Shown here one piece after another: positions 1,353-43,830 of a stretch of DNA of 64,000 bases; within the stretch, counting starts at the first letter, position 1; every line of letters begins with the position of its first letter. The notes beneath the pieces are model-generated. The model did no database searches and was not told the DNA's origin. It saw only the letters and a program-made list of their open reading frames with translations. A program made the translations under genes and the position numbers. This stretch comes from Dictyostelium discoideum (Eukaryota), in NCBI GenBank assembly GCA_000004695.1, contig CM000150.2, forward strand, positions 3,712,001 through 3,776,000, read 5' to 3'.

Positions 1353-1355
1353 TTA

Positions 1356-1449
<94 letters not shown>

Positions 1450-1494
1450 TCACAGTCACTATCATTAATATTATTATTATTATCATCATGATCA

Positions 1495-1565
<71 letters not shown>

Positions 1566-2698
1566 TTTATTTTTTTTTTTATTTTTTTTATCTTTATCAT
1601 ATATAATATTATTTATATCATATTTTTTTAATAAGTGTTTTAAATATTTTGATAAATAATCAAATGTTGGTCTTTGTGAAGGATTTTTACTCCAACAACG
1701 TGTAACAATATCAGATATATCAGTATCTTTAAAAATTTCTTGATCTAAAGAAGGTCTTTCATTTTTAAGTACTAATTCTCTTATTCTCCAGTGTGGCTCC
1801 GAATAATATGGTATTCTTTCTGAAAATAATTCATAACAGAGCATGCCAAACGAGTAAATATCAGTTGATTTAGTGTAAGAACCTTGTGATAGAATTTCAT
1901 TACTCATATATGCAACAGTACCTCTTCTAGTTTGAAGATTATATCTTTCATTGGTTTCTTTTGAAAATGGTATTAAAAAATAAAATAAAATAAATTAGAA
2001 TCATCAAACTAAAAATTAATAAATAATAAATAAACATACCTTTACTTGTACCGAAATCTGATACCTTTGCACAAACTAAAGATTTTGGATTCAAAGAAGT
2101 AATTAATATATTCTCTGGTTTTAAATCTCTATGAGTAATACCATTTCTGTGAAGATATGCACATGCTTTTGAAATATCAATTAAAATTCTATAAAAAAAA
2201 AAAAAGAGTTAATATTATTTCAAATCTTTTTTTAAAAAAAAAAAAAAAAAAAAACTTACCTAATTTTTTGAATAATTGTTATTTTATACTTATTTTCATG
2301 AATATATTTACTTAAACAACCTTTTGAACAATAATCTGTTACAATACCATGAATACCAGAAAAAATAAATCTACCCACATATAATAGTATATTTGGATGT
2401 CTTAATCTTTCTAAAAGTGAAATTTCTTTTTCAATTTCATCATGATCAACATATTCATTTTTAAGTAATTTAACTGCAACTGGTGATGATCTCCAAATAC
2501 CACGATAAACTATACCAAATGTACCTTCTGAAATATAGTTTTTAATTATAATTTCATTAAAATCTATTATATTAGTTAATTCACTCTCTAAACGAAGGAA
2601 AACAAATGTTGACCATGATTGCTTTACATCCAATGTTTCAAATCGAACTATTACTTTTTCATTATACTATATATTATAGTTAGTATAATAATAATAAT

Positions 2699-2764
<66 letters not shown>

Positions 2765-5700
2765 TAATTACCTTTGTAGTTGAAAATAAAGTAACTGATA
2801 ATGAAATTGAAGTTTCAACATTTGGTTTTAATTCAATAGATTGAAAAGGTGAACTTGTTATTGAACTATCATCACCTTCTGGGAATAAAAATAATGCATA
2901 TAATGGTTCACTTAACTTATTTTTAAAAGTGATAGTATCATGACAAACTTCACCAAGATCGGATTTTCTACCATTCATTCCAAAATCACAAATATATGGT
3001 GATACTGATACAGGTAAATCTGGATCATTACAATGTTGGAATATTGTATCTGCAATTAAAACATGTGTTTGAGTATTGGTTCTATATTTACCACTTTGTC
3101 CATTTCTATTTTTATAAGTTTTTAAATAATGTTCTAATGGTATTTCATTGGTAACAGGGTCAAGTAAAATATCAATAATATTTAAAGGATTTTCAATAAA
3201 ATCACCATGAGCTAATGATGGAACTAAATGAGGACTTGGTATTTTACTTTTTTTATACTCGAAAAATTCTTGATCAAAAGTATTTCTTTCAAATTGTCTA
3301 ACAAATAATTCACCCTCTGCTTCAATTTTAATATTTCCACCTCGTATAATATTAATATAATCTTCAACATCATCTTCATTTAATTCTGCACCATCACTTG
3401 AATCATCATATTCATCACTATAATCTTCAAAAAATGGTTCATTATTATTTATAATTGGTTTAATTTCTAAATTTTCCATTTCTAATGTTACATTTGTTTG
3501 TAATATTGCTCCTGCTGCTGTTGTTGTTGTTGTTGTTGTTGTTTCTACTGTGGTTGGTTCTAAATTATTATTTTCTGATTGTGTTTGAATATCAGAATTT
3601 CTATTTACTGTTATTGATATATGATTTGATGATGATTGTTCTTGATTTGAATTTATAATTAATGGTGTTGATGGTACTGGTGATTTATTATTTGATGGTT
3701 TCTTTGAATATAGTTCAACACCAAAAACAGCTATTTCAAGTCTTCTTCTTTTTTTATGTTTATAATATCTGGCACCAAAGAATACAATTAATATGGATAA
3801 TAAAACAAGTACTGTAACACAAATTGGAACAATTATTGGTAATAGATTTATTTTTTCAACTGGTATTGGATATTCAATTACAAGTGATGAATAAATTGCC
3901 ATTGATGTTAAGTATGTATTACCTCTTGTTGCAAATGAAATATTTATATTTTCCAATGAGTTGATATTATCGAAATTGAATGTTAAATTTTTGAAAATTG
4001 GTGCTGAATTACTCTCTAATGGTTCCAATAAGAATACTGGTTGATTTTCAATATAAATTGATAATGGTGTTGGTTGATCATCAATTGGTTGATGTATAAA
4101 AAATAATTGAATTTGATAATACTTTGTTTCACTATCAATTCTTGTTGTTATAGTTACTAATTCATTTGAATTAATTGATGTTATACCATTTAAAAATAAT
4201 TCATTAAGGTCATTTGATATATTTAATTTTGGTAAATTTGTTATATATTTTATATTATTTGAAATTGTACAATTATTGCTATTATCATTACTACTAATAC
4301 TACAACCTTTTTTGAATGAATTACCATCAACTGAAATTATTCCATTTTCAGTTGAGTTTTCCATTGACCAACCTGAATAAAATGAATAATTACTAAATAT
4401 TGTAATCTTTGGAAAATTGATAATATACATTATTTCTGAATCTCCTACATTCTTTAATTTCACTGTTACTTTTAAATTTACTGAACCATCATTTTTAAAT
4501 GTTAATGGAAATTTACACTCTTTATTTACACTCTCTGATATAGCAGATGATGTTATTGTTTCATTATCTGATTCGAGTTCACAAGTAATACGACTAATTA
4601 CTGGTGATATTATTACAAGTTTTACTATTAAATCTAATTTTCCACCAACTGGTATTTGATATTGTGAAGTTGGAAAAATGGAATCTACTAGAATAAATTC
4701 ATCAACATTTAAAAGTTCATAGAGGTATGGCACAATCGAAGAACCATAGATTTGATTATTTTGAAGTTGAAAATCATCGATATAAAAGCTTGAGTTTTTA
4801 ATTATGACAGCTGATGATTTAATACCATTATCACCTAATGATGGTGTTGTTGATGAACCAAAAAATGAATCATAAATATCCAACCTTTTAACTTGACCTG
4901 TCAATTTAAAATTATTAACACCAATAATATTTTTTAAAACTAAACCACTTCCTTTTAAATTTACAATGATTTTAGAAGAAATAGTTGAATCTTTAATTGT
5001 AAAAAAAGTATTCTTTAATTCTTCATCACTATTAACTATTAAAAAGTAATCTACTGGATTAATTGAAATTGGATTTACTAAGTTTTTACTAAAATCGATT
5101 GGCTCTTGTGAAAGACTTGGAACAACTATTGAATTAATATCGCATGGAGCGAAGCAATCTTTATCGAAACCTGTAACATTCTCTCTTGATATGAAATTAA
5201 AATTGTATAAAATTTTTTGGCCATTGAATATATCATTAGTTGAGAATATGTTTGGCGAAAGTGAATAGATACCATTGCCTTCATGTCCATAATCCATAAA
5301 TGCTGGTGATGTAGGAAATTCATTTGGTAAAACTAATGAGAAATAATTATTTGATGATTCTATATATTCTGTACCATACTGAGCAATCATACTTGAACCT
5401 GCTGTGCCCACTATTAAATTACCTGATATATTAACATTTGATTGAAAAAATACTAAAGATGATCTCGACGAACCAGTGTTTCCAATGATTACACTATTCT
5501 TTATTGTTACACTATTTGAAAACTCTATATATAGTGAGTTTCTAAATCTTTGATTTTTACCAATTATTATATCTGTCACATTATTTGGATTATCTGATGA
5601 GAAGGTTAGCTTTGTATCATCATATTCTTTATTTGAAGTTTTACCAATTGAATCAAGTAAGTAGTTTTCAATATGTAGTTTAGTATCACCTGTTATATAA

Positions 5701-6689
5701 ATTGATGATTTAGTTCTAGTTGATATTCCTCCAAACTTTAAAGAACCTGAATCATTGAAAAATAATTTTATATTTAGATCTGTTGTTGGTATTGTTAAAT
5801 CTTGCATCTCTAGTTTATTTTTGTTATAGGTAAATCTTGAAGTTCTAACATTTGGAAATGAGTCGCTAACTATAGATACATTGAATCCATTGAATGGATC
5901 TAATGTTGATATATCATTTACCTCTAGTACATTATCTTCTATCGGTTTAGCTGAATACAATATTCTTTGAGATCCAATAAGAGATATGGAACCACCTAAA
6001 CTAAGGATACCTGGGAGAAACCCAAAAGGATCAATTTTGATTATAGTTGAAGAAAGGTCAACAAATTGTAGCACGCAATTATTACAATGAAAATTACCAC
6101 CAGGCAAAACGATTATACCTCCTAAGGTAAGTGTTTGTTGTGATCCAGCTGTGAAACTACCTTCTATACATAGGATATTTATATATGATGGATGAATTGA
6201 CAAAAGAGGGTCTAAAGTCATGTTAGATCCTATAAATTAAGAGAAAAGAAATTGAATGATGTTAATAATTTATTTAGGTTTTAAAGAGTTATAGTATTTA
6301 AATAATATAATACCTTTTGTAATTTTAATATTTGCTTTTAAAAAAGGGCTTCCCGGGAAATTGTCTATGGAAAATTCGTTTGAATTTTTATTTTTTAATG
6401 CACTGTCGCATATATCGGGATAATATAATTCATGTGGCTCTACATTGACACTGTTTGCTTTTGTTGGTATTTTTGAAAAATTTTCAAACTTATTTATTCG
6501 ATATAAGTTATAGTAACCATCGGGTGTATAAACAAAACTACCTGTTTAATAAACAAAAAAAAAAAAAAAAAATTTTGTTGGTTACTGTTAAAGTATAAAT
6601 AAAATAATAAATTTGATCATACCTATAGAAAAAGTATTATTTATTGAAAATATTATTAATATTAATAAAATATATAAAATATAATTCAT
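1353..6689 (-). CDS. Receptor-like TKL-group protein kinase: signal peptide, large G8-like/parallel beta-helix ectodomain, one transmembrane helix, then a cytoplasmic kinase domain with a poly-Asn tail. About 1637 aa. Resembles the Dictyostelium GDT (growth-differentiation transition) family
   Basis: Six exons on the minus strand: 6689..6623 ([23 protein letters not shown], a signal peptide), 6541..6314, 6229..2772, 2666..2260, 2188..2040 and 1957..1353. Donors are GTATGA, GTATTA, GTAATT, GTAAGT and GTATGT; all acceptors are AG; the total is 4914 nt, which is 1638 codons. The ectodomain carries Gly-rich G8-like motifs ([26 protein letters not shown]...[20 protein letters not shown]) and beta-helix repeats ([30 protein letters not shown]...). 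The transmembrane helix is [23 protein letters not shown] followed by a KHKKRRR stop-transfer signal. The kinase domain has GTFGIVYRG (Gly loop), [17 protein letters not shown], and an APE-like YMSNE. The C-terminus is about 60 Asn encoded by (AAT)n. Confidence 0.75.
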
Positions 6690-7538
6690 CTTTATAAAAA
6701 ATAGATGAAAATAATAAAATCACTCATAAAAAAAAGTGGTTTGAAAAAAAAAAAAAAAAAATTTAATCAATAATAAAAGATTTGAAAAAAAAAAAAAAAA
6801 AAAAATCCAAAGATTTCAAAAAAAAAAATAAAAAAAAAAAAAAGATAAAAATAAAAAATAAAAAAAATTTAAAAAGGATTTTTTTGGGCTGAATTTGATG
6901 GAAGTAAAAAAAAAAAAAAAAGAATATGGCGAATAAAAAATTGGGATACAAAAGATTAAAAATAAAATAAATTACCTACCCTCTGTGACCCCATTTTTCT
7001 TTTTAATTTGAAGGTTTATTTGGTTCAAAATTTTTAAAAAAAAAAAAAAAAAAAAAAAATAAAATAAAATAAAATAAAATAAAATAAAATAAAATAAACA
7101 AAAAAAAAAAAAAAACCAAAAACCAAAACCAAAACCAATTTAAAATAAAAACGGTAAATGTTTGATTTTATTGTTTGTACTTTTTTTTATTTTGTTTTTA
7201 TTAAAAAAAAAAAACTAATGATTAAATATTTTTTTTTTTTTTTTTTTTTTTTCCAATCTTGGTATATAATTCCATTATGTTACTAATGACTGGCATTCTA
7301 ATAATAACTCCATAAGTTTTATAAGTGTCTTGTAGAGGGACGAGTTACACTTGATTGGTAGTTTTATTAAAAAATGTAAAAAAATCTGGAAGGCTCGGTG
7401 ATTTTTTTGACCAATTTACAAATTTCCCAGATTTCGCAGATTTCGTTGTATTGTTCAAATTACAATTCTAACTCAATTTTAAAATGAAAAATCTATATTC
7501 ATTTGTAGTTTTGGCGTTATTAGTGTTGTTTATGGGAG
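6623..7538. promoter_or_regulatory. Shared divergent (bidirectional) promoter region between the receptor kinase gene (start codon at 6689 on the minus strand) and the GPI-anchored beta-helix gene (start codon at 7484 on the plus strand)
   Basis: There are 794 bp between the two start codons, with no ORF. The stretch has an extreme A/T bias, long A- and T-runs, and an (AAAAT)8 repeat at 7059-7098. Confidence 0.5.
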
Positions 7539-10500
7539 GTATGCATTGGTTTATAATATTCTTTGATTATTTTTATTAATAATTTTGTAATTTTTTAATT
7601 TTAATTTTTTAATATTTTCTTTAAAACAGATTCTAATTCTCAAGATCTTTATACCTTTGATTGGAATGCCCCAAGAGTGAATATAAATGGCCATCCTCAT
7701 TTTAAAGTAAATTATTATCCAGGAACTACAAATTCAAATTATAAAGGTGATTTTTATCCGGATTTAGAGTCAAATCCAACAATTAAGAAATATACGTTCT
7801 CTAATAACTGTACTTTAACTGCTTCAACAGATTATAGTACAGCAGGTTTGTTTACCACACCTATGAACACAGTTGATAATCCTTTTGGAACTATTACAGA
7901 TATCAACACAACCCTTATTGTCCCCTTTGGAGTTACTGTAACTTTTTCAGGAAGAGTTGAATTGATTCCATCTTTGTTAATTAAAGGTAGAGTTGTTCTT
8001 GAGCCAAGTGTTGCTAATTCTTATTATTTTGTTATGAAAACAATTATTTTCCCAACTGGTGTATTTGAATCAATTCCAATAGCAACTTCCAACCATACTG
8101 TATTTTTACAAGGTGCATACAGCACATCACCTTTTATATGGGATCCACTTTATACTTCTTCTTTTTTATGTCTTGGAGGTACTGTTTCTCTAAAAGGGTT
8201 TAATAGTGAATCGGTATGGACTGGTAGAAATAGTTCTTATTCATCATATGGTGGATCTTTCTTAAGAACACCCTTTATCTATAACAATACAGGAGCACCA
8301 ATTTTTAGAATGGCATCCACTGGAAGAGATTCAAGTAATAATAATAATTATGTGATAAACAATTATTATACTGGGTACAGAGCAGGGGGTTCAAATGGTT
8401 TTATATCTGATAGTGCATCATTCAATGGTGGAGGATATCTTCTTGTAAACCCATGGAATAAAAATCTTTGGATTAGTGGTTCTAAATTATCGTCGATGGT
8501 ATTCACATTAAACTCGAATGTTAATATCCAAAATTGTGTATTATTTGATTTAGGTCACACAAAAGGTGATATTTTGGATGATAACATTCTTGACTCAAAT
8601 AATATGGTAACCCACACCGGGACAAATTTACCAGATAGATACCCTATTACACTCCTACACAATACTAAAGCAGTTACCATCAGTAATAATTTCTTTCATC
8701 ATGGATTTACTTTTGGTGGAACTCAAGCCTCTATTCCAAGATCATTTATTGGTGTAAAACGTTCTTTTGGCACTATCTCGGGTAATGCGTTTGCATTGAA
8801 ATCTAGTATAAGTGGTATTTCTTTATTACATGGTACTGAACAATTTGAAATTAGTTATAATGCCTTCTTATCCGTATATTCTGATACAACAGATATATCA
8901 TCATATAGAGCATATCCTGATATAGATTATTTAAATGGTGGTATCATTACAACTTCACCTTACTCAACTTATGAAGGAAATGCATTTGAAGGTAATTTTA
9001 AAGGTGGTGCTTTTCAAGTAATCCCAATTCAAAGTAGATCATCTGCTACAGGTTTATCATCTGATATTTTAATTGGTGCATATGTTGGTTTAACACAAGA
9101 TAATACAGCTGATTATAAAACAAATAATGTTTGGAATAATGTTGAATATAAAAATAATTTTTTTGCTGGCGAAGCAGAATTTCGTTTTAGATATTCATTT
9201 ACAAGTCTACCAACAATTAAAGTAAATATGAAGTTTGGATGGTATATTGGTCAAAGAGTATCACAAAGACTTGGAACGACTGGTAATCAAGCAAACATTG
9301 AACTTTGCTATGATTCGCCATATATTGCAAGCACTCTATCTATTGGTGATAATTTCTATATTACTACTTCCAATTCACATAATGGAAAGTATAATGCTGT
9401 TTCAATGGTTAATTCGCTTGCAACTTCAACATATAAATACTTTGCAGAAACATTTACTTCAAATTACCTTTCAATCAAAGATTCCAAGTTTTCCCATTTT
9501 GCAGCATCACCCTCAACGTTCCTTAAAAATTATGCAACTCAATTATATTTTTCAAATGTGAATGGAACAAAGCTCAATATTGGATTTGCAATAAATTCAT
9601 TCCAACCTCTTTATAATTTATCACCAATTAGTACTGATGTTTCTTCAAACAGAATCAACGTATCATTTATTCCAAATTTCGACTTTTCATACTCTGATGG
9701 TCAAAAAGTTGATTATATTGTTGATGGAAATGTTCAATCTACATTAAGTTTTTCGTTGGATCCAAACAAAGCATTGAAATACAATGAAGTTCTATTTCCA
9801 AAAGCAAATGGTGTTTATTCAGTTTTGATTTCATCAGTTCAAAACATTCCAACATTTATCTCTCCATATGGGCCATATTTTGCAAACTCATACATAATAG
9901 ACTCGACTGCTATAAACTTTTATCTTGGTATCGATTTAACTTCAGATATTAGTTCATCAGCTACTGCTCTTTCAATTTTTGGTAATTCATGGACAAAATG
10001 TGGTTGGGTTAGCTCAATTTGTAAAACAACAGGCAAATTCAGTAAGGTATCTCCGACACCATCTACAGTAACTGAATCAGTTACTGGAGCGGTCAGAAGC
10101 ATAGCAAATGAAGTATCAATGCTAACTTCATATTTAGCTAATGATGATACATTAGGAATTAAAAGTTCAGTTAACATCACATTACCATCAGGTTCATCAT
10201 TCAAGTTTTTCATTTATTCATATAATGCGGATTACACTGGTGCTAATATCGTAAACTCCCTTCCATTATTCACAATCAAAATTAATGGTAAATATCAAGA
10301 ACCATATTCAAGACCTTCTTCAACCTACCAACAATACAAAAAGTATGGTCCATTCTTTTATAATACTGACTCAACTGATACCAAATTAATTATTGAATGG
10401 GCATCAGATAATATAAAATACTCAATACCAATTTGTGGTATTGAAATTTTCTCAAATATTTCATCACCTTTAGTTATTCCTACTCCAACACCATCATCAG

Positions 10501-10655
10501 GTGGTGCAGTCGAAACATCAAGTAAATCAACAACTTCAAGTGGTTCAACCGAAACCAATTACGATGAAGGCTTAAATGCAGCTTCATCTGTTTTATCTTC
10601 AAAAACATTATTTTATTTAATCTTTTTTTATTTTATTATTTATTTTTTTCTCTAA
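7484..10655 (+). CDS. Secreted, probably GPI-anchored, cell-surface protein with G8-like/parallel beta-helix repeats, about 1026 aa. Third member of the local beta-helix ectodomain cluster, with no kinase domain
   Basis: Exon 1 is 7484..7538 (MKNLYSFVVLALLVLFMG, a signal peptide; donor GTATGC). Exon 2 is 7630..10655 (acceptor ...AAAACAG; it begins DSNSQDLYTFDWNAPRVNINGHPHF). The total is 3081 nt. The body has pectin-lyase-like repeats (TISNNFFHHGFTFGG...ISGNAFALKSSISGISLLHG). The C-terminus is a Ser/Thr-rich stalk (TPTPSSGGAVETSSKSTTSSGSTETNYDEGLNAASS) followed by a hydrophobic tail (LFYLIFFYFIIYFFL), which is a GPI-anchor signal pattern. Confidence 0.7.
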
Positions 10656-11385: not shown

Positions 11386-15938
<4,553 letters not shown>

Positions 15939-16334: not shown

Positions 16335-16925
16335 ATAAAAATAGATTTTATTTTTATTTTGATTGAATCCAATTTGATAAATCTTGATTAAAAGCTTTGA
16401 ACCAATTTGAATTAATTGTAACCATTTCTAAATCTTGTTTAATTGAACGATCAGCAATTGGAACTGGATGATCTTTGAAAAAGTTGACGACTTCATTGTA
16501 TTGAGAATCATCCATTTTAGAGGTGAGACAACTACCAATGATACGACCAAACAAAGGAGAGTTATTAAAGGTTTCATCGATTTGATTAAAGTTTTTGGTA
16601 AAGTAAGCCCAAGCGAATTGACGAACACGATTTGGAAGGGTAAAGAAAACCATATAACTATCTTGACTTCTAACGGATGGAGATAAAGCGAAATTGAGGG
16701 CTTTTTCAACCAATTCCTCTTTTGGAGCCAAAGCAAGTACCAAAAGGTAAGAATTCTTTTCAGCAACTAAAGAAGATTTAAGATATTGATCAATGATGAT
16801 TTGTTGATCAGCTTCACCACCATTCTTTACGATTGTAGCAAGTACTGTAGAACGAATATCTGATGGTAAACTTGAAGAGTCTGCTTTGAAAGCTTCGAAT
16901 CTTTTCTTACATTCAGCAACGATCT
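16335..16925 (-). pseudogene. Inverted partial duplicate (gene fragment) of the last roughly 590 bp of the M1 aminopeptidase gene, including its stop codon and 14 bp of its 3' flank
   Basis: The reverse complement of 16335-16925 matches 21513-22100 almost base for base. The encoded peptide ...KRFEAFKADSSSLPSDIRSTVLATIVKNGGEADQQIIIDQYLKSSLVAEKNSYLLVLALAPKEELVEKALNFALSPSVRSQDSYMVFFTLPNRVRQFAWAYFTKNFNQIDETFNNSPLFGRIIGSCLTSKMDDSQYNEVVNFFKDHPVPIADRSIKQDLEMVTINSNWFKAFNQDLSNWIQSK* differs from the parent at only a few residues (F/L, D/N, N/K). There is no upstream exon or start codon. Similarity ends abruptly at 16925 on one side and shortly after the stop codon on the other. Confidence 0.8.
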
Positions 16926-18329
16926 GAACTAATTTGACTCTCTAAATTATCAATTTCTTGTCTCTTTATTGAAAATTGATAAAATATATTTGAATGTGGT
17001 TGTTCTTGAATTAATTGATTTGATATTTTATATTTTTCATCTACATCTTCTGTGAATATAATTCAATTTCTAAATTATCTCTTAAAATTTTATTAACATC
17101 TATAATCTATTATCACTACTACCTTGACTATTACTATTAACACCACCACTACTACTACTACTATTTATAATAATTAAAAAAATTATTAAAATTGAATATA
17201 TAAATAATTATTAAATATTATCATATTTTATATATATATATATTTATATAAAATTTTTATATGACTTTTTTTTTTTTTAAAAAAATTATTTTTTTAATTT
17301 TATTATTTTAATCTATTATTATTATTTTACTATTTTATTTTTGTATATACACAATAATATTATTAATTGTATAAATATTATATGTATTTTAAAAAAAAAA
17401 AAAAAAAAAATGAAATAGAAAAAATATAAAAGTATAACCCCCTTAAAATTTAGAATTTTTATTTTTTTAATTTTTTTTTTTTTTTATTTTTTTAATATAG
17501 ACAATCAAAAAGAAAACTAGAAATATTATAAACTACAACAATATCCTACAAAATCAATAATAATATCATAATAATCAACATTAACAATCAATTGGTTGAT
17601 ATTATTCATATTTAAAATAGGGGTTAAATAAATAAAAAAAAATTATATGGACATGTTGTGTTGGTGAGTTATCGTATGAACATGGGTGCTTGCGACCGCC
17701 AAGACTAAAGGATAAAAAAAGAATTTTATTCGGGTCATAATAAAAAGTGGTATTTAACACTGTTTTGGTATATCGTAAATAGCTTTGTGGTTCACAAAAA
17801 TTATAACAAATATAGCCTATCCTGTAGAGAATTTCGTAAAACTATTTTGGAAGATTTGAATGGTCACCAAACCCTTGGGGCGTACTTTCTAAGTTCAACT
17901 TTTTCAATTTTTTCTACTTTTTTTCAGATTTTTCAAAGAAAAAATAATGAAAAAAATTAATAAATATAAATAATATTCATTTTAATTACCAAACAATCTA
18001 ATTATTATTTTTATTTGTAGTTTTTAAAAAAAAAACCGTTAAAAAACTTTTCTGATTTTTTCCTATTTTCGATAAATATTTCTTTAAAAAAGATATTATT
18101 ATTTATGTTAATTGGGGTGTTAAATATTTCTTTAAAAATTTTTTTTTTGAAGTTGTGTTTTTTTAATTAAATAAATAAATTCATAATTATTTCCTTCTAT
18201 TCATAAAAAAAAATTGTAATTGATTATATGAATTGATCGATTTCCTTTTATTAATAAAAAAAACTCATAATTATCTACTTCTATTAATAAAAAAAAAAAA
18301 TAAATTCATAATTATTTCCTTCTTTTAAT

Positions 18330-18930: not shown

Positions 18931-19262
18931 TATTATTATTATTTTTTTTTTTTTATTATTATAATAATTATATATTATTGGTATTTTTTATTTATAAAAA
19001 TTAAAATCTGGGCAATAAAAAAAAAAAATAAAAAAAAAAAATAAAATAAATAAAAAAAAATAAAAAAATTTTTATTTTTTTTTTTGTGATCATCAATTTA
19101 ATTTGTTTTAATTTATTTTATTTTTTTTAATTTTTTTTTTTTTAATTTTTTTTTTTTTAATTTTTTAAAATGAAAAAAATAAATTTAATTTCGATTATTA
19201 TTTTTATAATTTCACTTGTTTATTTTAATTTTATACATATAAATAATAATATAGTTGAAAAA

Positions 19263-20170
19263 ATGTGTGATCATAAACATTTAGTTGACAAAGTAGATAG
19301 ATTAGTATTACCAGATAATATCGTACCAAGTAAATACGATTTACATCTTAGACCAAATTTAAAGGATTTTGTATTCAGCGGCAAAGTTGACATTACAATC
19401 AATATTGTTAAACCAACCAAAAAAATCATTATCCATTCAATTGACATTGAAATTCAATCAGTAAAGATCTTAAATCAACAAGCTACTTCCGTTACCTACT
19501 ATGAACCAGAAGAAGTTGCAATTTTAGAATTCCAAGATGAATTACCAGTTACAGAAAATACAATTCTCTCCATTGATTTCACTGGTATTTTAAATGACAA
19601 ATTAAAAGGTTTCTATCGTTCAAAATATGTTGTCAATGGTGAAGATCGTTATATTGGTACCACTCAATTCGAAGCCACTGATGCTCGTCGTGCTTTCCCA
19701 TGTTTTGATGAACCTGCTTTAAAATCTTTCTTTAATATTAAAATCACTATTTCATCTCATTTAACTGCTCTTTCAAATATGGATACAACTTCTGTAATTG
19801 AAAATAATGATGGTACTAAAACCTTTATGTAAGTGTATTATATATATTATATTGAGAAAAAAAAAAAAAAAAAAGTACTAATTTTTTTTTTTTTCTTTAT
19901 TTTTTTTTTTAAAATTAAAAGTTTTGAACAAACTCCAAAGATGAGTACTTATATTGTTGCATTTATAGTTGGTGAATTCGATCATATTGAGTCACATACT
20001 AAAGAAGGTATTAGAGTTAGAGTTTACAAATGTGTTGGTAATAAAGAATCAAGTGAATTTGCTTTAGATGTTGCCACCAAATCATTATCTTATTTCATTG
20101 ATTACTTTGGTATTCCATATCCATTAAATAAATGTGATCACATTGCCATTCCAGTACGTATTTTTTATTA

Positions 20171-20229
<59 letters not shown>

Positions 20230-22083
20230 TAATCATATTCTTCTTAATAATAATATGTTAATTCCTTTAATAATATATAATGATACCATTACCAATCACC
20301 ATCACCATAGGACTTCTCCTTTGGAGCTATGGAAAACTGGGGTTTAATTACTTATCGTGAATCAATTTTATTAACATCAGATAAAACTACTCTTCGTACT
20401 AAACAAAGAATTGCTAATGTAATTGGTCATGAATTAGCACATCAATGGTTTGGTAATTTAGTAACAATGGAATGGTGGAGTCAATTATGGTTAAATGAAG
20501 GTTTTGCAACATTTATGGGATATTTATCAACTCATCATTTATTCCCAGAATGGGAAGTTTGGAATGATTTCTCTGATTGTTATAGAAATGGTGCACTTCG
20601 TTTAGATGCTTTAGAGAATTCACATGCAATTGAAGTACCAGTACGTCTTTCGTCTCAAATTTCAGAAATTTTTGATGCCATTTCTTATAACAAAGGTTCA
20701 TGTGTAATTCAAATGTTAGAGAGTCGTTTCGGTGAATCATTTAGAAAAGGTCTTCATCATTATTTGGATACTCATTCCTATAAGAATACCAATACCGATG
20801 ATCTTTGGGCTTCAATTTCATTGATTAGTGGTGTTGATGTTAAATCATTCATTGATTCATTCACAAAGTATCCAGGTTATCCAGTAGTTTCATTCACTCC
20901 AACTTCAACTGAAGGTACCTTTGAATTATCTCAAAAGAAATTTAGATTACAAGGTTCTGAGAAATCTGATGATCCAATTTGGAATTGTTTCATTAGATTC
21001 CAAACTGGTAATGCTGGTCAACATGAATTCATCTTGGAGAAGAAATCCGATACCGTAACAATTCCAAACTTTAAAAATGGTGATTGGATTAAACCAAACT
21101 ATGGTCAAACTGGTTATTTCCGTATTGCCTACTCACCTGAAACTATCAAAGCATTGGTTCCAAAGATTAAATCAATGGAAATTCCAACTCCAGATCGTTT
21201 AGGTTTATTATCAGATGTTTTCAATCTTTGCAAGGCACACACTTCTTCCATCTCTGCCTATATGGATTTAGTTTTGGCTTTTGAAGATGAAAAGGAAAGT
21301 AATGTTTGGGATTTCATTATCGATAGTCTTGGTTCTATTCAAACTTTAATTGAAGATCAACCATACTCAAGTAGATTCAATGAAATCTTTGTTCAACTTT
21401 TGAAACCACTTTCAAAACGTTTAGGTTTCGAGCCAACCAAAGGTGAACCATCTTCAGATACCTTGTTAAGAGATAAAGTAAACACTAAATTGGGTATGTT
21501 GGGTGATGCTGATATCGTTGCTGAATGTAAGAAAAGATTCGAAGCTTTCAAAGCAGACTCTTCAAGTTTACCATCAGATATTCGTTCTACAGTACTTGCT
21601 ACAATCGTAAAGAATGGTGGTGAAGCTGATCAACAAATCATCATTGATCAATATCTTAAATCTTCTTTAGTCGCTGAAAAGAATTCTTACCTTTTGGTAC
21701 TTGCTTTGGCTCCAAAAGAGGAATTGGTTGAAAAAGCCCTCAATTTCGCTTTATCTCCATCCGTTAGAAGTCAAGATAGTTATATGGTTTTCTTTACCCT
21801 CCCAAATCGTGTTCGTCAATTCGCTTGGGCTTACCTCACCAAAAACTTTAATCAAATCAACGAAACATTTAAAAACTCTCCTTTGTTTGGTCGTATCATT
21901 GGTAGTTGTCTCACCTCTAAAATGGATGATTCTCAATACAATGAAGTCGTCAACTTTTTCAAAGATCATCCAGTTCCAATTGCTGATCGTTCAATTAAAC
22001 AAGATTTAGAAATGGTTACAATTAATTCAAATTGGTTCAAAGCTTTTAATCAAGATTTATCAAATTGGATTCAATCAAAATAA
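19263..22083 (+). CDS. M1-family zinc aminopeptidase (puromycin-sensitive aminopeptidase-like), about 856 aa
   Basis: Three exons: 19263..19828 (donor GTAAGT), 19922..20153 (donor GTACGT) and 20311..22083; total 2571 nt. Motifs: GFYRS, FEATDARRAFPCFDEP, MSTYIVAFIVGEF, the GAMENWGLITYRE exopeptidase motif, and the HELAHQWFGNLVTMEWW...LWLNEGFA zinc-binding site (HEXXH-18-E). There is an alternative in-frame upstream start codon at 19170 (MKKINLISIIIFIISLVYFNF...) that would add a hydrophobic N-terminus; which start is used is unresolved. Confidence 0.85.
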
Positions 22084-43289: not shown

Positions 43290-43830
43290 TGTTGATGTGT
43301 ATAATAATGTTGTTAATGTTGTTGATGTATATTTATTTTATTTGGTGAGGTTGTAGTATGTTGATGTTGTTGGCGTTGTTGATGTTGTTGATGTTGTTGA
43401 TGTTGTTGATGTTGTTGATTTTGTTGATGTTGTTGATGTTGTTGGTGTTGTGGATTTTGTTGATTTTGTTGATGTTGTTGATTTTGTTGATGTTGTTGGT
43501 GTTGTTGATGTTGTTGATGTAATATATATATTGGTTATTATTTTATTTTATTTTATTTTATTGTTGTTGATGTTGTTGATGTTGTATATATATATTGGTT
43601 ATTATTTTATTTTATTTTATTTTATTTTATTTTATTTTATTTTATTTTATTTTATTTTATTTTATTTTATTTTATTTTATTTTGGTGTTGTTGATGTTGA
43701 TGTTGTTGATGTTGTATATATATATATATTGGTTATTATTTTATTTTATTTTATATTATTTTATTTTATTTTATTTTATTTTATTTTATTTTATTTTATT
43801 TTATTTTATTATATATATTACTATTATTTT
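43290..43830. repeat. Minisatellite blocks: (GTTGAT/GTTGTT)n alternating with (TTTTA)n arrays
   Basis: Read directly in the sequence. The ORFs 43450..43836 and 43595..43849 on the track are artefacts of these repeats. Confidence 0.85.

Follow-up and report, generated by a model that had tools for sequence, protein, structure and literature searches.

An ordinary spacer inside a conserved gene cassette: the head-to-head pair of gdt2 and DDB_G0269850 in Dictyostelium discoideum

We analysed a 64-kb window of chromosome 1 of Dictyostelium discoideum AX4 and, within it, the spacer between two divergent genes: gdt2 (1353..6689, minus strand), which codes for the GDT-family TKL receptor kinase Gdt2, and DDB_G0269850 (7484..10655, plus strand), a gene labelled 'DG1041 family' that we call B-type. 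In our judgement the spacer is an ordinary one, and the interest lies in the conserved gene cassette that contains it. What is new here is that a Gdt kinase lies head to head with each of the four B-type subfamilies that we examined in the D. discoideum group, and also with the one D. purpureum copy. What goes beyond chance is which gene is the partner, and not the head-to-head geometry. Regarding the spacer itself, on balance we favour the reading that it is normal AT-rich intergenic DNA with two back-to-back promoters rather than one bidirectional element, and that it belongs to one copy of an old cassette. In the literature that we searched we found no description of the Gdt/DG1041-type pairing, of kinase-less neighbours of Gdt genes or of the cassette organisation.

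Recurrence of the pair and relatedness of its products

Nine B-type loci were fetched for gene context, and at every one of them the gene immediately upstream of the B-type gene is that of a Gdt-like receptor kinase, which faces it head to head from the opposite strand. The loci of the gdt2 type came from three D. discoideum strains and D. citrinum; the paralogous ones were the gdt4 locus (a wild strain and an AX4-like genome), the gdt9 locus (D. discoideum and D. firmibasis) and a fourth locus, and the D. purpureum locus was added to them. Searching with tblastn, we found that the homology of the partner kinases extends across both the ectodomain and the kinase, and gdt4, gdt6 and gdt9 were identified by the kinase peptides of the kinome paper. 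The spacer measures 508-1500 bp across the fetched pairs and around 760-790 bp in the gdt2/B-type orthologues and the gdt4 locus. Furthermore, the outer neighbours of the D. purpureum pair are unlike those of every D. discoideum locus fetched. No B-type locus fetched contained Gdt1, so for at least one Gdt no B-type partner was seen.

The B-type family itself consists of orthologues of DDB_G0269850 in D. cf. discoideum, D. citrinum and D. dimigraforme (75-83% identity), three groups of paralogues in D. discoideum strains and D. firmibasis (53-59%) and one homologue in D. purpureum (47%). A profile search of a word-indexed database gave no B-type proteins outside group-4 Dictyostelium; an exhaustive HMMER search added three full-length members from dictyostelids outside group 4 (P0074, P0075 and P0077), which are more distant.

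We also observed incomplete copies of these genes. An additional, incomplete gdt2-like copy is present in two wild D. discoideum strains, with about 83% amino-acid identity over residues ~244-713 (L001 21752-23223, L002 20796-23190), and in L002 a partial B-type copy (P0068, 559 amino acids, 84%) adjoins it, also head to head. In AX4 this position is occupied by aminopeptidase genes, and the cassette is thus variable in copy number. At the gdt4/gdt6 locus there is a copy that consists of a Gdt ectodomain only, which is an intact gene of 960 amino acids in a wild strain (L016 13285-16330) and is split into two gene calls with frameshifts in the AX4-like genome (L021 14874-17605). Because of these frameshifted, split gene calls and because the corresponding ID, DDB_G0270546, is missing from the RNA sequencing (RNA-seq) table, this copy is probably a strain-specific pseudogene in the AX4-like genome.

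The intron-exon models of gdt2, DDB_G0269850 and gdt8, which is the third gene of the cassette, were built by hand. The gdt2 model codes for 1637 amino acids in six exons on the minus strand (6689-6623, 6541-6314, 6229-2772, 2666-2260, 2188-2040 and 1957-1353). The first of them, of 67 nucleotides (6623..6689), begins with the ATG at 6689-6687, codes for the signal peptide and stops at 6623 at a GT donor. The signal peptide is followed by an ectodomain of around 870 amino acids and of the gdt type, one transmembrane helix and a TKL kinase domain (residues 1292-1541 in Pfam), which together are the features of the GDT receptor-kinase family. Its N-terminus and kinase motifs are identical to those of Gdt2 (DDB0220631) in the supplement of the kinome paper; thus, the gene on the minus strand is Gdt2, a member of the same family as Gdt1, and the kinase that comes next is Gdt8. 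DDB_G0269848, which had been assumed to be gdt2 from its position, was rejected, since it is the acyltransferase agpA; the dictyBase ID of gdt2 is not positional. Exact look-ups in the protein collection found neither Gdt2 nor Gdt8, and Gdt2 itself was not among the results of the homology search with its ectodomain.

On the plus strand, our model is identical to DDB_G0269850 over 1026 amino acids. It has two exons (7484-7538 and 7630-10655), the first of which has its ATG at 7484 and stops after 55 nucleotides, at 7538, at a GT donor. The product has a signal peptide, a putative G8-like domain plus right-handed beta-helix, a Ser/Thr-rich stalk and a C-terminal hydrophobic tail like those of glycosylphosphatidylinositol (GPI)-anchored proteins. 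As read by eye, most B-type proteins end in this way, the Ser/Thr-rich stalk being followed by some small residues and then by a hydrophobic stretch at the terminus; these features were seen in the D. purpureum protein and in three of the four D. discoideum-group subfamilies, and were absent from the models of the gdt9-partner subfamily. From its tail, DDB_G0269850, which dictyBase labels as a 'putative transmembrane protein', is probably GPI-anchored. In the gdt9 partners (P0019, P0021 and P0022) the models end without stalk and without hydrophobic tail, which means that either their last exon was missed or these proteins are secreted rather than anchored.

The two products are distantly related to each other. 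BLASTP aligned Gdt2 and DDB_G0269850 with 28% identity over 227 residues (E value 5e-4), and the profile-profile comparison (hhalign) of the B-type family with the Gdt ectodomains gave a probability of 93.7% and an E value of 2e-7 over 412 columns, at matching positions of the two (residues 35-503 against 37-484). Judged from these alignments, the N-terminal half of DDB_G0269850 is a remote homologue of the Gdt ectodomain, and the description of the pair as related surface proteins in the first-pass annotation is therefore supported as regards distant homology. Gdt and DG1041-type products appear to have a G8/beta-helix module in common. An exhaustive HMMER search with the B-type family profile matched Pfam G8 and CEMIP beta-helix proteins, with E values down to 1e-12. 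In the opposite direction, the Pfam G8 model matched two of 15 B-type family members (best E value 0.045), and DDB_G0269850 itself stays below the Pfam thresholds; its likeness to the G8 and beta-helix ectodomains of the TMEM2/CEMIP type implies no catalytic role. The AlphaFold model of DDB_G0269850 is of moderate quality (predicted local distance difference test score, pLDDT, 57.8), being confident for most of residues 70-220 and patchier for 290-480.

The spacer and its promoters

The spacer (6690..7483, 794 bp, 81.6% A+T, assigned to no strand) presumably holds the promoters and the 5' untranslated regions (UTRs) of both genes. The gene models confirmed its limits as first proposed, with start codons at 6689 on the minus strand and 7484 on the plus strand, head to head and 794 bp apart, and the repeats noted earlier were found as well: an exact (AAAAT)8 microsatellite on the plus strand (7056..7095) and nine homopolymer runs of A or T, of 10-24 nucleotides each. 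The spacer, its repeats and its head-to-head geometry are ordinary for the D. discoideum genome. The surrounding region is very AT-rich (15-25% G+C), the whole window holds 247 homopolymer runs of 10 nucleotides or longer, and, by a hand count over the AX4-like loci fetched, around one third of the adjacent gene pairs are transcribed away from each other, across spacers of 486-1886 bp. The same pentamer occurs on the minus strand at 43604-43807, as (AAAAT)16 and (AAAAT)10 microsatellites.

A small protein or RNA gene hidden in the spacer would mean that gdt2 and DDB_G0269850 are no true neighbours, and the first-pass annotation had named such a gene as something that would speak against its proposal. 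There are two stretches of higher complexity, 6880-7000 and 7255-7480, where it could be looked for. However, the scan for transfer RNAs found none in the spacer, and the Rfam scan of 5500-8500 gave nothing at E<=1 within it, the sole match being a sub-threshold SNORD62 at 8060-8110. The open reading frames (ORFs) of the spacer reach 62 amino acids at most, are mostly poly-F/K translations of the homopolymer runs and are disrupted by insertions and deletions between strains in the alignment, so that no credible gene was found. We therefore consider a hidden gene extremely improbable.

In order to describe conservation we aligned the spacer of AX4 with those of D. citrinum and two wild D. discoideum strains. 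Only the two ends next to the start codons are conserved, whereas the repeat-rich centre is polymorphic in length; the AAAAT repeat, for instance, has eight units in AX4 against around 4-5 in the two wild strains. On the side of gdt2, a block of about 46 nucleotides adjoining the ATG is conserved among the D. discoideum strains and D. citrinum. On the other side, conserved patches run from about -155 down to the ATG of DDB_G0269850. They start with CTTGTAGAGGGACGAGTT (7329..7346, plus strand), around 150 bp upstream of that ATG, which is the clearest GC-containing block conserved with D. citrinum. The promoter-proximal and 5'-UTR region of DDB_G0269850 (7255..7483, plus strand) is of higher complexity, near-invariant in the D. 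discoideum strains and patchy in D. citrinum. Furthermore, a k-mer search of the paralogous spacers gave no common GC-containing 8-mers beyond single chance pairs. That conservation is limited to the ATG-proximal ends argues against a common cis element, as far as an alignment can tell.

The conserved block next to gdt2 contains an upstream ATG and a short upstream ORF (uORF) of 11 codons on the minus strand (6692..6727; MSDFIIFIYFL and stop), which stops 2 nucleotides before the gdt2 start codon. The wild strains keep this uORF with one I-to-V change, and in D. citrinum the upstream ATG is retained and would overlap the main ORF of gdt2 out of frame. If the transcript begins upstream of its ATG, the uORF could play a part in controlling translation on starvation.

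Regarding expression, the evidence on co-expression covers DDB_G0269850 and the paralogous gdt4 pair. In the filter time course of Rosengarten 2015, DDB_G0269850 had 997 and 498 raw reads at 0 h, and its mean was around 820 raw reads at 0-2 h, around 80 at 6-10 h and 30-60 late, which is a fall of about 10-fold by 6-10 h of development. A second data set gave a decrease from 95-159 to 4-9, with a log2 change down to -3.9. Thus, DDB_G0269850 is a growth-phase gene that is off as aggregation begins. For the gdt4 pair, gdt4 (DDB_G0270550) had 6-194 raw reads, rising late, while its partner had 0-2 raw reads at 19 of 19 time points under DDB_G0270548, an ID taken from its position between gdt4 and the broken ectodomain-only copy. 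The B-type gene at this position is intact in the AX4-like genome, where it codes for 1021 amino acids and gives one uninterrupted tblastn alignment. Therefore, the co-expression expected of a bidirectional promoter was not seen where it was testable, namely in the gdt4 pair.

The first-pass annotation had proposed that one bidirectional promoter drives both genes 1:1, as a receptor and its ligand or co-receptor would need. The arrangement is indeed that of a bidirectional pair, with genes on opposite strands, 5' ends facing each other, a spacer shorter than 1 kb and no gene in between, and the spacer has kept a similar length in the gdt2/B-type orthologues and at the gdt4 locus. There is also a precedent in the same species, since the highly polymorphic genes tgrB1 and tgrC1 are arranged head to head, with a common region of 524 bp between them and coordinated regulation (PMC12142906). 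More generally, the conservation of divergent gene pairs goes along with transcriptional or functional linkage (PMC2871058). Our pair resembles the bidirectional-promoter pairs of eukaryotes in its head-to-head order, its spacer below 1 kb and the gene order kept across species, and differs from them in that the expected co-expression was not seen in the gdt4 pair. Against a shared promoter we have the strong growth specificity of DDB_G0269850, whereas gdt2 is reportedly expressed throughout development. To this are added the silence of an intact partner next to an expressed gdt4, and the conserved blocks close to the ATG on each side of a polymorphic centre. The proposal of 1:1 co-expression from one promoter was thus not borne out, and we hold it to be improbable; two separate promoters in the spacer are most likely, judging from the pattern of conservation and the expression of the paralogous pair. 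The idea that the two genes form a unit survives as regards evolution, given the recurrent head-to-head pairing, and fails as regards expression.

Origin of the cassette, strain divergence and possible function

Trees of the head-to-head Gdts, of the tail-to-tail Gdts and of the B-type proteins were built by neighbour-joining. The trees of the head-to-head Gdts and of the B-type proteins are broadly congruent, in that the D. purpureum pair falls outside and the gdt9 pair is basal in both, but they disagree on the branching order within the group of gdt2, gdt4 and the fourth locus. At three of the four loci there is a second Gdt gene beyond the B-type gene, tail to tail with it, and these tail-to-tail Gdts (gdt8, gdt6 and the L018 kinase) form a clade of their own. 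Since the gene trees are broadly congruent, the pair was duplicated as a unit; on these trees, the duplicated unit is the pair, and the triplet in three loci. An inverted duplication of an ancestral Gdt-like gene is the probable origin of the head-to-head pair itself. The pair was then copied as one unit, at a time between the split from D. purpureum and the later one of D. discoideum from D. firmibasis. Such an origin would account for the head-to-head geometry without any co-regulation.

Some points weigh against the reading of an old cassette with two promoters. Adjacency is inherited automatically once a cassette is duplicated, and local gene order is in general kept between D. discoideum and D. 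firmibasis; therefore, retention of the pair alone is weak evidence of selection. Moreover, gdt8 and the gdt4 partner were given their IDs (DDB_G0269852 and DDB_G0270548, respectively) on the basis of position. The first two points also favour the possibility that the pair is a historical relic only, left by inverted and then segmental duplications, with no functional link and no selection for adjacency. This would agree with the discordant expression of the partners in the gdt4 pair, with the lack of cis motifs common to the paralogous spacers and with the absence of Gdt1 from the B-type loci fetched, which suggests that some Gdts may work without a neighbouring partner. However, the pair is intact in five of five independent copies, including the one of D. 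purpureum with its different outer neighbours, and each of the four B-type subfamilies examined has a Gdt partner. Furthermore, the B-type proteins are under purifying selection (ratio of nonsynonymous to synonymous divergence, dN/dS, around 0.3), and DDB_G0269850 is expressed in growth, the phase when Gdt2 is thought to act. Thus we take a mere relic seriously, while judging it rather unlikely.

The comparison with tgrB1/tgrC1 made in the first-pass annotation led us to examine divergence between strains, on three haplotypes (AX4 and two wild strains) and with agpA and a gene of 119 amino acids inside the fetched loci as controls. The wild strains differ from AX4 by 3-7% per 500-nucleotide window over the whole alignable 16 kb. 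The synonymous divergence (dS) between them and AX4 is 0.07-0.11 in gdt2, DDB_G0269850 and gdt8, while that of agpA, a housekeeping gene next to them, is broadly comparable but somewhat lower, at 0.04-0.06; for dN/dS, the three cassette genes have 0.3-0.5 and agpA around 0.1. This excess is not concentrated in the ectodomains, the cytoplasmic part of gdt2 being its faster part, and among 100-codon windows none had a proportion of nonsynonymous differences (pN) clearly above that of synonymous ones (pS). Two other proteins of the window had identical copies only on AX4-like contigs, and so they are not identical in the wild strains. Hypervariability of the tgr kind, for which a polymorphism survey had been suggested, was therefore absent in the three haplotypes, and the cassette proteins appear as fast-evolving proteins under purifying selection and not as hypervariable recognition genes. 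As a separate observation, the kinase domain of gdt2 (exons 1353-2666) has a dN/dS of around 0.8 between AX4 and the wild strains and of 0.05 between the two wild strains, which suggests that constraint was relaxed, or adaptation took place, in the lineage of the laboratory strain.

Like tgrB1/tgrC1, the present genes code for two distantly related surface proteins of expanded families, head to head across a short spacer. A tgr-like allorecognition pair, with matching polymorphic alleles of ligand and receptor for kin discrimination, would be consistent with this arrangement of distant paralogues on the cell surface, with the amino-acid difference of about 6% between AX4 and the two wild strains and with the variable copy number of the pair in wild strains. 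Nevertheless, the polymorphism is not locus-specific, as divergence spans the whole 16 kb, agpA included, and dN/dS is no higher in the ectodomains. The tgr genes are induced at aggregation, whereas DDB_G0269850 is shut off in early development, just as aggregation starts. Finally, the tgr products are transmembrane proteins of the TIG/IPT type, whereas here one product is a TKL receptor kinase and the other has a putative G8/beta-helix part and a GPI-like tail; no TIG/IPT domain was matched by Pfam in the two proteins, the fold is probably a beta-helix, and they do not belong to the tgr family. An allorecognition role is thus very improbable.

Regarding a possible function, the GDT family comprises receptor kinases with a common ectodomain, which is presumed to sense signals for the switch from growth to development; Gdt1 and Gdt2 restrain this switch. 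Reported traits of gdt2-null cells are aggregation on bacterial lawns ahead of clearing and discoidin expression at low cell density. In addition, gdt2-null and gdt4-null cells respond more weakly to the proliferation inhibitor polyphosphate (PMC8262924). The growth-phase expression of DDB_G0269850 fits the role of Gdt2 as a brake, which makes a role of its product as co-receptor, decoy or ligand a reasonable guess. On our favoured reading, the products of gdt2 and DDB_G0269850 would act in the same surface-sensing pathway during growth. Receptor kinases of plants work together with GPI-anchored co-receptors, as FERONIA does with LLG1/LORELEI. The likeness lies in a single-pass receptor kinase with a GPI-anchored extracellular partner, and by this analogy it is the mode that we deem most plausible for Gdt2 and DDB_G0269850. 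The plant partners, unlike ours, are neither paralogues of the kinase ectodomain nor chromosomal neighbours. In its full form, the proposal is that the DG1041-type proteins are dedicated extracellular partners of the Gdt kinases (GPI-anchored co-receptor, decoy or ligand), and that DDB_G0269850, made only while the cells feed, lets Gdt2 restrain development, so that its shut-off on starvation helps to release the brake. This is a tentative and rather unlikely proposal. If it were true, the conserved cassette would be the genomic trace of a Gdt/DG1041 partnership and a first molecular handle on what the Gdt ectodomain binds. In any case, a kinase-less relative of the ectodomain beside gdt2, on in feeding cells and off on starvation, offers a concrete hypothesis on Gdt2 signalling.

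Gdt8 and neighbouring sequences

The third cassette gene, gdt8 (11386..15938, minus strand, 1321 amino acids), is convergent with DDB_G0269850 and was identified as the gene of Gdt8 through the table of the kinome paper, which calls its kinase domain partial. Its catalytic loop (exon region 11882-12027) has HGD in place of HRD, and DDB_G0269852, the ID assigned to it by position, had 0-19 raw reads. Gdt8 may thus be a poorly expressed pseudokinase. Its ectodomain contains a poly-Asn tract of about 40 residues (exon 14341-14538), and in this part of the locus alignment the wild strains have around 700 extra nucleotides, which means that the length of the ectodomain is variable.

Beside gdt8, at 16357-16941 on the minus strand, there is an ERAP1_C fragment that is near-identical to the C-terminus of a full M1 aminopeptidase gene (19170-22083, plus strand). 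The fragment is inverted with respect to this full gene a few kb away and represents a recent partial duplication. At the corresponding place D. citrinum (L015) has a single aminopeptidase gene call, of 856 amino acids.

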